From the NCBI GenBank assembly GCA_951406725.2, contig OX597815.1:114080001-114144000 (forward strand): a stretch of DNA of 64,000 nucleotides. The letters run 5' to 3'. Of this stretch, positions 12,707-18,700 are shown piece after piece. The position numbers and the translations under genes are program-made. Under the pieces are notes generated by a model. That model worked only from the letters and a program-made list of their open reading frames with translations, was not told the DNA's origin and ran no database searches. The DNA comes from Octopus vulgaris (Eukaryota). Every line of letters starts with the position of its first letter. Position 1 is the first letter of the stretch.

Positions 12707-15700
12707 CTGCAAAAAATAAACACAAACATTATCAGTGTTATTCTTGGGAACATTTTGTAGATTTACTATTGCATGATACAGGACACATTCTAATCCTGTA
12801 CATGGAACAACTACAGAATTTTTAACAAAGAATATGCTACAGGGTGTTCAAAATGTCTCTCTGCAGTAAGTATTTAATGGTTTTCGGCAATTCTTGTACA
12901 CTGATTCTTTACTTGCTCCTCGGAAAAAAAGGTCTGTTAAATCAGGTGATCTTGGTGGCCAAAGTCCCTTCAAAATAATCTGTTCACTGAAAAACTCTTG
13001 AAGTAGCACCATAGTGATACACAAGACGGAAAAAAATTGATTGTGGAGAGACTTTTTGAACACCCTGTAGATTAGGCTCATCTTAGTCTGTCCAGGCCCA
13101 GTAGGGGGCTCGGCAGATTACATTAAGAAAACTTAAGGTAATGAGTCAAGAAATTCTAATTAGAATTACATCCACTGTGAAGAAAAAAAGCTTTCTCATT
13201 GATTGATTTTTATCTAAAAAGGCAGGAGAGACAAAAGCTGGAATAAATTGATTAAAAATATAATGCAGTAGGGAGAGAGTTCACTTTTGGTAGTGCAGTT
13301 ACTTGATATTGTAATCATTTTAGAGAAAAAACACAAACTGGTTTAACATTGTTGATGCACACAGTACAAAATAAAGAATGTAAGTGTGCATTAGTACATA
13401 ATATAGGATATAATTTATTAAAGAGTAATGCTTTAAGATTGTAGTGTACACTCAAGTGAAGTTCCTCTCTCCCCTTTATTAAATATATATATGTACTTGA
13501 ATAAAGCAGGTAACAGTTAACCTTTGGCTGCTATTTAGACCCCATTGTGTCCACTACTCTGATTGGTTGATATTGGTGCAATTTGTCTCTTACTCTGTCA
13601 TGCCAATTTGCAGCATATATCCAATCAGAGCCTCTAAATAAAATCATGTGAGACAGCCTGTTCTCAACCCGGTTTTGAACCTACAGCTCCTTATAAAAAC
13701 TCAGCTTCTCCTCGTCTCAATGTCTTAGGTTTCAGACCTTTTAAGGTTTAGCCACTGACCACACAAGACACAACCAGTTCCAGCGACGACGCCTCACTAT
13801 GACTTACCAACTTCATCCAACAGCATTACAGTGATCTCTTTCTTCATCTCCACCATCTTCTTAACATTGTCAACATCATCTCTATATACACAACTCAACA
13901 AGCAACTTTCCCGGGTTCCAACACTTCATTGTTTGTGAATTACTTCACCATGGATCAACAGTGAATATACAACCTGCGAGAACTCCTGTACCAAGTGACC
14001 CAGGCAGCAGCATCACAGCCACAACTTCTCATTACATGTACCACAACTGGCTCAGCATCATGGCCATAACTTCTTGATACAGTTTTTCAATTACCATGTA
14101 CAGTTTGACTACGAACTGGTATTTCTCATTCTTGTGTCTATGAACATTTAACTTTTCATTATAGACTCTTTTAGTCTTCTTCATTGCTATTCTTATATCT
14201 ACTTAACGCACACACACACATACATCCATGTCTATACACACATACACTTTGTTCTCATGACAGCCTGTCTATTATTCTGTATACATGACACACACACAGA
14301 CATACATGTTAATAAATCTTCTCTTAAACATTCTACTCGGGTGGGTGTGTCTCTTTTTCCCTCTGACACATATATGTATTTTTTTTAATATTTATTGTAA
14401 GGGCTGTGTGATGTACCTGAGACTCATTCTCGTTACCTCACATAACACAGTCTTTACAAATTAGTGACCCCGATGTGAATTTATTTAGAGGCTCTGATTG
14501 GTTATATGCTGCAAATTGGTGCGACAGAGTAAGAGACAAATTGCACCAATACCGACCAATCAGAGTAGTGAACACAATGGGATCCAAATACTGGCCAAAG
14601 GCTAGCTGTTACCTTCTACGTTTGAGTGCATGTATATATAATAAAGGGGAAAGAGGAATTTCACTCAAGTGTACACTACAGATAACCCCTCACCAGTCAT
14701 TTTGTGGGAGACAAAATAGACAATAAAAGGATGATATTTCTGTAGTGAAGAGGTGAAATTAGAAAGAACGGTCGGTCATTAAAGTAAAATGAAAGCTGGC
14801 ACTGAACTATGGAAAGGAATGTGTGTTCTAAGTTGGGTCACCAATTTGTTGAGACCGGGCAATGCGAGGTGACAAGAATGAATCTTTAGTACAAGACGTA
14901 CCATTTTTGCTAGTGTATAGGCCGTGCTTACTTTTATATTTAAATGTATTCAAAAATTGTCTCATGTCTAATGCAGCTGTATTACAGATGGGAGACCAAA
15001 TGCCATAGGTGAGGGGGCCAGATCAGCAAAAGTCTACTCAGTATAATAGTTACTTACTAGCTGGACCCATGAAAAATTCACAGAAAACATAAAAAATGTA
15101 AGCATCTGTAAACAGTGTACTGGTGCCATGAGAAATGTTTGTATATTATGACAGTCCGCCTTTACATTCTGAGTTCAAATTCTGCTGAAGTCAATTTTGC
15201 CTTTCGTCTTTTCGGGGTCGATAAATTAAGTACCAGTTGTGTACTGGGGTCGATCTAATCAACTGGCCTCCTCCCCACAAAAATTTCAGGCCATGAAAAG
15301 TTTAGAGTGGCAGTTATAGAATATAGAAAGTAATGTAACACCAATGACTATATAATCCAACCAAAATATTTCAGTTACACAAATGTAAACGGAATGACTA
15401 TTTAATCTTAAAATACAACGTACATATTCAAAGAACCTTCTTGGTTTAGTGGTACAGAACGTTATTTTGGTATTCTTTTACTTGTTTCAGTCATTTGATG
15501 GTGGCCATGCTGGAACACCACTCTTTAGTCAAAGAAATTGACCCCTGGACTTATTCCCTGTAAGTCTGGTGCTTATTCTATCAGTCTCTTCTGCTGAACA
15601 GCTAAATTACAGGGACGCAAATGCACCAACATCGGTTGTTAAGCAATGGTGATAGTGGGACAAACACAGGCACAAACACACATACATACATACATATATA

Positions 15701-18700
15701 TATACGACAAGCTTCGACTCCCACTTCATCCAGTCAGAACAGTTTTGAAGGTGCTACTTACTGCCTGCTAACGCCAAATACTCAGGTGACTGGATTGACG
15801 CCATCCCTGTGGCTAATGTTGGTGGCCTACTCAGCTTGGACGAACTTTGTCTCCATTGCCCTCAGAGTGGGAGCTGATATATCCACAGGTTTGATCTGTC
15901 ATAGAAAGCTCTTCAACTCCACAGGCCTCCATGGCCTTTCTTGCCGCCTGAATGCTGGTCACTTCACGCATCATACAGAGTTGAACCTGACTCTCAAGAG
16001 GAGCTTCGCATGGGCAAACGTCCCCTCCATCTTGGAACCATCTGGATTGTCCAGATGTGATGGGAAGAGACCTGACAGCTTTACCCTGTGCCCCTAGTCT
16101 GGGATGTCACAGTTAGTGACTCTTTGCTTCTTCTCACATCCTGGATGCTGTGGTCAGGGTGAAATCCACAGCTTCTGTGGCTGAGCGGAACAAAATCCTG
16201 AAATACCGCGATTTGTCGGCTAACTACATTTTCCATCCTGTGGCGTTCGAGATGTTTGGTTGGGTCGGATCACTAACTGCGAGATTCCTGTCTTCATTGG
16301 CAACTCACCTTGCAGAGGTAACTGGTGAGGACCTTTGGCTGTTCCAGCACATCAGCCTTGCCATCACCCGTGGCAACGCTGCGAGTGTGTCTCAATAGCC
16401 ATTAGAAAGTTTTCCCAGCGCCCCAAACTTTTCAACACAAGGTGATGAATTGTTTTGCTTTGTTTGTTTCTTTTTTTCTCTGTTTTCTTTTTCCCTTATT
16501 TTTTCTTTTTAATTTTTTCAATTGTGTTCTCTTTTTTCTCCAGTTTTCTAGTTTGATTTTGTAAAACAGTAAACACTGTGAAGGTAATAAAAGCTGACTA
16601 CCTTTTACTTTAAATGAATAAGTAATTAAAGGAAGTTACATAAAATATAGCCAAAAATAAAACTTTTACATTCTGTTTGGCAATTCTCAGTCAAAATTTG
16701 AACAACTATACAGTTAAAATACAATACTCCTTAAACGTAATTTATTTATAAATTTATAAAGATTTTATACTTTATTCCAGTATAGTCACAATATTGTACA
16801 CACAATCATACATTCCCCACTACAAAACCACTTCAAAATATCTTTCAATAACTGTATGAAGAAACATTAAATGTCTCTCCACAAAATATTGTTGTAAAAT
16901 AAGGGTGTCGTATGTGGGTAACTGTTTATTAAAATAGTTGTATCTCTTTCATCGTCTTCAGTCTCTTAAAATGATTAAAGGATTATATCTTTATCTTTTT
17001 TTTTTACTCGTTTTAATCATAAGACTGCGGCTATGCTGGGACACTGCCTAGTCGACCCCAGTACTTAATTTTTTAAAGCCTGGTACTTATTCTATCAGTT
17101 TATTTTGCCAAACCACTAAGTTACAGGGACTTAGACACACCAACACTGGTTGTCAAAAGGTAGTCTCACATACACACACACACACACGATGGGCTTATTT
17201 TAGTTTCTGTCTTCCAAATCCACACACAAGGCTTTGGTTGGTCTGAGGCTATAGTAAAAGACACTTCTGGGTTAATGTCATTCCATTGCGCCCCATACAA
17301 AAAGGTGGAGGGGTTTGCAGTCAGGCAAGCTGGGAGGCCAAATGTCAGATGCTGAGTGATCAAACAAATTCTTCGACAATCAGATCTGGGTCTTCTAACT
17401 GGTGTGGTAGGGCACAAAGTCCACACGCACAGCCTCCCTGTAGCTACCTGGCCAATCCAGGGCTTCACCACCTCACTCAGAAGATGGATGTAGCCATCGT
17501 TGTTCGGCCTGAGACTCTGTCCAAGACGATGCAGGAAAGCGACTAAGCACATCAAGAAATTGATCAACAAGTTGAAACACCCAACTCGCCTGACTGCAAA
17601 CCCCTCGACTTTTTTGTATGGGACGCAATGGACCGAGAGACCAACAAATCTAGCTGCAGAAGGACGGTTGAGCTGGAGACCAGGATTACCAGAGCCATCG
17701 GGGGCCTAGAACAGGAGATTGTGACAAAGGTTTGTGGCCAGCTTCGAGGTCGCCTGGAAGCTACCATCGAGTGAGATCGCGACAGAATATGTCAAGACAA
17801 ACTGACCCTAATTTGACAAATATATCTAAAAAAACAAAAACACTTTTTTACTTTCCTGAGACAGTCATTATGCGAACGAATACCGTCTTATAACCTGTCT
17901 AAGAGCTTACCACCTTCTCAGCCTCTCCCATCTTAGCGAACCGCTATATTTATCCCGTCATCTTCGATGAGATTTCAACTTCAGTGAGACAGCAAACTAC
18001 ACACTGCAAAGCACATTTAGTCTAAATCTCTACTTTGTTTTGGAAAAATTGCCTTGATTAGACGACCAATAGATCTAATTATTAGAAAAGTAAGGGGTCG
18101 ACGAATGGCAGATTCAATAGCGCATTTATTTTCACTGTAAATAGCCACGCTTTTTACCTTCTGAGTTCAAATGTAGATTACGTGAAATTTGTTCTCATCC
18201 TTCCAGGGCCTATAAGATTAAACACTAGGGGTGTATATTCCGGGTGTGCTAGGTGTGCGCTGCACACCCATCGAAAATGGCAAATTCATTACAAATATTA
18301 ACCTTACTCATTAATTTAGTCACAAATCTGAATGGAAAACTTTTGTTATACTCCTGCTTGAAATTTGGTGGCAACCACCATACGCCACTCTTAAACACCA
18401 TTCAACTTCTAGGGCGGAGTCGAATTACCCGTGTAAACCTTTAAAAAAAAAAAAAAAGTTACATGGAGTGCTTTAACCGGAATTCCGCCGATACCTAAAA
18501 AAAAAAATAAGGCGATCTTTCGTTACTGAATGAATGCCAAAAGGGGACTCATATCAAATGAATGCCAAAAGAAATCAATATTAGAAAATAACGAGTAACA
18601 AGAAACTAAGTTAAAGATGTATTTACCTGGGATCGCCAAACTATTTAGCGGTAAGTCATGACAAGAAGCTGGTAACTGGGACATCCAATTTGCTAAGTCA

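Follow-up and report, generated by a model that had tools for sequence, protein, structure and literature searches.

A 1454-bp unit at positions 13440-14893 of the window, by which we mean the whole 64,000-nucleotide stretch of Octopus vulgaris DNA analysed here, G000:C2:114080001-114144000, is probably the single insertion, with a 4-bp target duplication, of a product that was copied from two templates when strong-stop DNA was mis-transferred, as has happened recurrently in this non-autonomous, Trp-primed LTR family. It consists of one LTR, a copy of the 3' end of tRNA-Trp and, in inverted orientation, the U3, polypurine tract (PPT), internal region, PBS and part of the U5 of a second family copy. 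Because the same jump is found at five other places in the genome, it is likely an error of copying that recurs and not a new family of transposons, and the unit itself is best explained as a dead fossil that did not amplify.

The left part of the unit is a complete LTR of 1019 bp (13440-14458, plus strand; TGTAG...TTTACA) from a multicopy non-autonomous family, and its U5 is of the minority CCTGAGA variant. The anatomy that an earlier note had read from the letters holds, with ATTGG at 13562, CCAAT at 13621, TATAAAA at 13692 and AATAAA at 14311, as does its remark that the unit has neither a second direct LTR nor coding sequence, the single LTR being followed by an inverted half. A DNA search with this LTR returned 1303 first-look candidates; among the best 40, which were scored, the top ones span bases 1 to about 1020 at 75-84% identity. 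In the 32 family copies with both ends present and no PBS or PPT tag, the flanks were identical at all four positions in 17 and at three of four in 9, as against 77 of 992 mismatched flank pairings at three of four or better, and the sequence is therefore a true LTR with 4-bp target duplications. The direct-repeat layout of LTR, PBS, internal region, PPT and LTR is seen at L008/L116, L120, L128, L121 and others, and the family is old, its copies departing from each column's commonest letter by about 10%. The family PBS is complementary to the 3' end of the host tRNA-Trp(CCA), whose genes gave 33 pattern matches (control, 0), with a tRNA called in three of the six loci scanned; a pattern search for the PPT gave 22 matches against 7 in the control.

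The parent element that the earlier note anticipated was recovered in part. The LTR does occur in direct repeat, in multicopy TRIM-like elements, but no autonomous Gypsy element with this LTR was found behind 30 PBS loci (1.5 kb each), in 10 longer stretches or at 8 integrase loci, the latter drawn from 150 scored matches. Autonomous Gypsy elements in which a short Trp PBS goes with TGTA...TACA ends and 4-bp duplications do occur: of the eight loci inspected, five have LTR pairs with these ends and a Trp PBS, and none of the eight has LTR sequence in common with this family. A Gypsy element on the minus strand of L307 (7225-7665; G000:C4:92.814M) has an open pol frame of 1108 aa and almost no 5' LTR; after its 3' LTR come AAT, all 18 nt of a tRNA-Trp copy and then sequence unrelated to it, and its own PBS is short. 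A young Trp-primed Gypsy family lies at G000:C2:25438461 and about 20 other places with identical integrase scores, its LTRs being 100% identical in L308 and L314. At G000:C6:58.38-58.46M there is a cluster of at least 16 matches to the tRNA-Trp 3' end.

Several family copies are themselves rearranged. The internal regions of L083, L124, L128, L130, L133, L136-L140 and L090 often open with tandem units of LTR end plus PBS, and the tRNA-Trp complement extends there to about 25-33 nt, i.e., as read-through primer copies fixed in the element. In L064/L179 (G000:C1:137.347M), LTR bases 701 to 1 lie inverted ahead of LTR 666-1000 and a PBS, and the internally inverted copies L086 and L115 hold an inverted U5 piece and an inverted U3 piece with a CGCTACA end. 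Just upstream of the unit, the window contains a MITE-like pair of 39-nt inverted repeats 156 nt apart (12837-12875 and 13032-13070), present also at 16869-16893.

The inverted half was at first taken to end at 14680, in a copy of the U3 end with gat (or agat) on both flanks. The arm is indeed an inverted stretch of U3, bases 1 to about 210, from a second copy of the family (14473-14680, minus strand; its first 7 nt overlap the tRNA copy), but the inverted sequence continues to 14893. Beyond the arm, all on the minus strand, lie the PPT of the second copy (14681-14695), which abuts its TGTAG; a short non-coding internal region that matches in sequence the TRIM-like elements of the family (14696-14831); a family-type short PBS (11/18 ungapped) with its AAT linker (14832-14846); and the last 47 nt of a U5 of the majority TAAAGA variant (14847-14893). 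Homology to the family stops at TGTAC in this U5, so that the right end of the unit reads GTACA. Since the apparent gat flank is the end of an inverted PPT, the right-hand gat/agat is not a target duplication. Over 378 nt, positions 14473-14849 align at 87.6% with the TRIM-like element of L008.

The two halves of the unit come from different templates. The U5 of the left LTR belongs to the CCTGAGA class and the right-hand U5 piece to the TAAAGA class; among 70 ends assigned by loose regular expressions, 4 fell into the former, 47 into the latter and 19 into neither. The arm differs from the left U3 in 26 of 190 aligned columns, and a tree of 98 U3 segments does not make it the sister of the left U3, whose partner is instead that of L002 (97%). 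Because this tree is nearly star-shaped (strong support for 9 of 95 branches, and 86 of 500 label shuffles as low as the observed value), the arm's 14% divergence does not by itself exclude self-templating, and with most of the tree unresolved the structural argument for two templates is the stronger one: PPT-primed strong-stop DNA, as it is portrayed in the relevant passages of PMC6894440 and PMC6088434, offers upstream of U3 neither a PPT nor an internal region nor a PBS that could be copied.

The outer ends support a single insertion of the whole. The termini are TGTAG (13440) and GTACA (14893), and the target-site copies beside them are agat (13436-13439) and agac (14894-14897). Contigs of a related organism (organism C; two of four runs, X9 and X13) span the left end from 13045 to 13478 with 27 other letters and have C at 13439, so that the left flank there is agac; the pair agac/agac thus combines the left base of organism C with the right flank as in the window. 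Contigs of organism B span both outer ends, one of them crossing the right end (14792-15081), and another carries the arm's own letters (14515-14681, one difference). Among the contigs and reads listed from the four runs no piece spans the central junction (14458-14480), where the raw-read run has nearly no coverage, and none of the 15 joints listed is an empty site. These shared junctions suggest that the 1454 bp entered as one piece, before the organisms split.

Thus delimited, the unit ends in a U3 on one side and in a cryptic U5 end on the other; the two share only TGTA, and there are no terminal inverted repeats. It contains a PBS and a PPT and is without coding capacity. The earlier proposal that extension had run to the LTR end, giving two U3 ends with TIR-like termini, fails at this locus: PPT, internal region, PBS and a U5 of a different variant follow the arm. 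The proposed multicopy class is likewise unsupported, as DNA and pattern searches found no second copy of the unit, although only the best candidates were scored and the count is not exhaustive. With 14400-14540 as a DNA query, the only full-length match among the best 40 of 167 candidates was the window itself; this search is insensitive, because it also failed to recover L091, L096 and L097, three loci at which the junction was detected by pattern.

At the junction, an AAT linker (14459-14461, plus strand) leads from the LTR end to an 18-nt copy of the tRNA-Trp(CCA) 3' end (14462-14479, plus strand), which matches the complement of the host tRNA at 15 of 18 positions, as had been noted, and at 4 of the 12 past position 18. 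Its last 7 nt are complementary to an E-box-like site in U3 (13643-13649, plus strand), which reads ATCATGT here. The ancestral ATCACGT assumed by the earlier note on grounds of CpG decay is borne out, since the site has exactly these letters in 17 of 44 family U3 contexts and fits them in 31 of 44 if CpG decay is allowed (two of the 44 contexts are the window's own, and one is another junction arm). A CpG-tolerant ATCACGT acceptor occurs at a single site in the 1191 nt of LTR plus internal region, for which 0.088 exact sites are expected.

This junction recurs. A degenerate junction pattern gave 16 matches, against 16 in the control; six of them have a family arm and the other 10 were set aside. 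Of 45 matches to a longer pattern, 3 lie at junctions and the rest are, by their matched text, ordinary U3; a gapped pattern gave four matches, three of them real. The six junction loci are the window, L091 (C2), L096 (C6), L097 (C7), L104 (C24) and L105 (C25), and the seven junctions that they hold (two in L104) match the tRNA at 14-18 of 18 positions and then at only 2-4 of the next 12. For comparison, a PBS table of 25 rows, less 1 spurious row and 3 junctions, leaves 21 ordinary LTR-adjacent PBSs, of which 18 match the tRNA at 9-13 of 18 positions in an ungapped count that penalises PBSs one C short. Because the remaining three carry the full match of 17-18 nt, the 18-mer is not unique to junctions. 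The 18-mer at 14462-14479 looks like a newly made tRNA copy that halted at position 18. The m1A58 stop forms part of the background of retroviral reverse transcription. Judged by the strongly supported branches, the junction arms require three origins or more, and the letters past the junction vary by subfamily; the junction is therefore recurrent and was not amplified from one master. We found no description of a junction of LTR, tRNA copy and inverted U3 in the literature searched, whose scope did not extend to most subscription papers and supplements.

The probable path to such a molecule starts from plus-strand strong-stop DNA, composed of the LTR, AAT and the 18-nt tRNA copy. The poor match of the family's own PBS to the tRNA would leave the 18-nt copy with an unpaired 3' end; this end, instead of annealing to the PBS, would anneal to ATCACGT in the U3 of a co-packaged sense RNA and be extended through the U3, PPT, internal region and PBS of that second molecule. 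The right end may then owe its position to a second priming event by tRNA-Trp, on a tRNA copy beside GTACA as in L105, which we favour by a little over a cryptic plus-strand primer or a pause in U5, and which is the least certain step. Finally, the integrase of an autonomous Trp-primed Gypsy element would insert the molecule with a 4-bp duplication. We infer these steps from features that are directly observed, namely the order of the parts, the two U5 variants and hence templates, the target duplication, the single 7-nt site and the recurrence of the junction. One element of the earlier reading is retained here: the 3' end of strong-stop DNA pairs by its last 7 nt with the sole matching site in U3, and the junction occurs at five other loci. 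What is given up is the element's own U3 as the template.

At two of the junction loci the tRNA copy lies within a mini-LTR, inserted with a target duplication. At L105:1449-1698 (G000:C25:32663044+) there is a 250-bp solo mini-LTR, with flanks GGCG/GGTG, whose parts, in order, are a U3, 18 nt of tRNA-Trp copied in antisense, ATT and the final 47 nt of U5; GTACA, followed by AAT and the 18-nt tRNA copy, lies at the exact position of the window unit's end. L104/L177 (G000:C24:33.408M; flanks TGAT/GGAT) holds two mini-LTRs with an internal region, which suggests that a mini-LTR passed through at least one further round of reverse transcription. A hairpin origin of the mini-LTR is without energetic support, as the U5 piece, folded as DNA, formed other pairings (-5.2 and -2.5 kcal/mol) and no stable TGTA/TACA stem.

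If the strong-stop jump had been made in an earlier molecule and the junction inherited, the antisense PBS of a mini-LTR TRIM could have offered full-length strong-stop DNA about 25 nt of pairing. A single template would then account for both the junction and the right end, and mini-LTRs do exist as integrated elements, both solo (L105) and as a two-LTR element (L104). However, searches for mini-LTRs found only these two, neither of them with the U3 type of the window arm: they belong to a different U3 clade (96% support) and lack some 15-20 nt that the window has past the junction. Because of these two differences the direct template of the window's right end was not found among them, and we consider inheritance from a mini-LTR improbable.

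A history of two ordinary insertions, head to head, followed by a microhomology-mediated deletion between them and by a second deletion that trimmed the right LTR, is a little less probable still. It would explain why the halves have different templates, and the copies are old, as noted above. At L091, L096 and L097, moreover, the left parts were lost after insertion, so that later deletions are evidently common. The same history requires a chance match of the 4-bp flanks and a break exactly at TGTAC, a position also used in the L105 mini-LTR, and it would have to produce the same junction by double insertion at several unlinked loci.

According to the earlier note, strong-stop DNA annealed to a site in its own U3, and extension as far as the LTR end yielded a 1241-bp element with two U3 ends, which would form a mobile, TIR-like class. 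The junction is exactly as that model predicts. At L091, L096 and L097, the arm does stop at U3 base 1 with no PPT after it, and the 200 nt past the arm match PPT plus internal region no more closely than shuffled sequence does; the proposed arm therefore exists in the genome, but the left U3 start of these loci was not found within 37-39 kb upstream, and with their left ends lost two U3 ends with a target duplication are not demonstrable there. For the unit in the window, the parts that follow 14680 refute the model, and the target duplication lies at 14894 rather than 14681. With no second copy found either, self-folding is a very improbable origin of the unit.

Two further elements, each at a single locus, do have two U3 ends, formed by other joints. 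In L002 (G000:C2:116658935-116659961, minus strand; flanks tatc/tgtc), a family LTR runs into a 41-bp arm that repeats its U3 start in inverted orientation; the arm is identical to that start at 39 of 40 positions, a level found in 2 of 300 family pairs. L002 and the window LTR are 2.6 Mb apart and have in common a tract (LTR 51-250) that is 91-93% identical, which suggests gene conversion as judged from the sequences; segmental duplication was rejected, as the flanks have only other repeats in common. At L256:5107-5500 (G000:C1:162.033M), a MITE-like element of 394 bp has inverted repeats of at least 137 bp in which U3 1-24 is fused to an inverted internal region at a shared GTGAAAT, with a PBS array at the centre and a partial sibling about 570 bp away. 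A pattern search found no other copy elsewhere (81 matches against 83 in the control, real only at L256), and no two-U3-ended product was found at more than one place.

An inverted chimera made by the assembler is scarcely credible: no listed contig or read spans 14458-14480, where raw reads are nearly absent, but the arm differs from the left U3 as described, organism B has a contig with the arm's own letters and others across both outer ends, and the junction occurs at five other loci with different sequence.

Mis-transfer of strong-stop DNA to a second template thus stands as the probable origin of the unit, which is itself a single old chimera. The loci together indicate that inverted U3 arms can arise again and again through reverse transcription itself, at one fixed microhomology, and that the molecules so made are integrated in the germ line with the usual target duplications. 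The family keeps a record of failed second-strand transfers in the form of tRNA copies, PBS arrays and mini-LTRs. For annotation, loci of such inverted-arm products mimic TIR elements. A more far-reaching possibility, which we regard as unlikely, is that the 7-nt match between tRNA copy and U3 acts as a hot spot at which LTR reverse transcription yields, in one step, both elements that can integrate and bear inverted U3 arms (41-210 bp) and mini-LTR elements primed twice by tRNA, some of them remobilised by Gypsy integrase, so that these would be fossils of the first step from an LTR retrotransposon to a Ginger-like TIR transposon.

Among known systems, TRIMs, as characterised in passages of PMC10886601, are closest to the parent family, which likewise has two direct LTRs, a short non-coding stretch and both PBS and PPT. 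TRIMs mobilised by Gypsy elements are described there, and the parent too has 4-bp duplications, solo LTRs and a Trp PBS common to autonomous Gypsy elements. The size given in those passages, below 1000 bp, is exceeded by whole family elements, since the family LTRs alone are about 1 kb. The window unit does not fit the TRIM plan: its one LTR is followed by inverted U3, PPT, internal region, PBS and U5, a second LTR in direct orientation is missing, and the product is rearranged. Helenus TRIMs, in the same source, have a tRNA-like sequence inside the LTR, as do the L104 and L105 mini-LTRs; in Helenus, as far as that account goes, this part is a promoter without PBS complementarity, whereas in L104 and L105 it is the 18-nt 3' end of the primer tRNA and is complementary to the PBS.

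Pulsinelli and Temin reportedly described, in 1991, products of aberrant strand transfer and of self-priming in the reverse transcription of retroviruses. The window unit resembles the strand-transfer products covered in parts of PMC6088434, PMC7472051 and PMC9278108, where self-primed products appear as dead ends. It differs from them in that its jump lands at a U3 site of the same sense and leaves the remainder of the molecule inverted, and in that the jump recurs in this family at one 7-nt hot spot and has left germ-line fossils, including a re-integrated mini-LTR. The inversion circles of autointegration, as outlined in PMC7197481, also place an inverted portion beside an LTR. In that outline, however, the LTR end (CA) attacks dispersed internal sites and the products are circles, whereas the joint in the window is a tRNA copy paired to a fixed site within a linear molecule that has a target duplication. 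An autointegration product was rejected on account of the AAT and 18-nt tRNA copy between the LTR end and the inversion.

Ginger1 and Ginger2, as presented in sections of PMC2836005, have TGTNR termini and 4-bp duplications. The window unit shares the 4-bp duplication, and its left TGTAG fits TGTNR, but its right TGTAC does not, and its target is not CCGG/CCGT. It also has no TIR pair, transposase or copy family, its arm being internal, and its identification as a Ginger or other TIR element was rejected, as its true ends are not an inverted pair and one copy was found. The TIR range of Ginger elements in that source, 40-270 bp, includes the U3 arms of 41-210 bp at the other loci. There the route from LTR retrotransposon to TIR transposon is called unclear, with the chance landing of two LTRs in opposite orientation offered as a suggestion, and for this reason the two-U3-ended singletons are worth recording. 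The recurrent mis-transfer offers a path to inverted U3 ends in a single step, yet none of its products has amplified.
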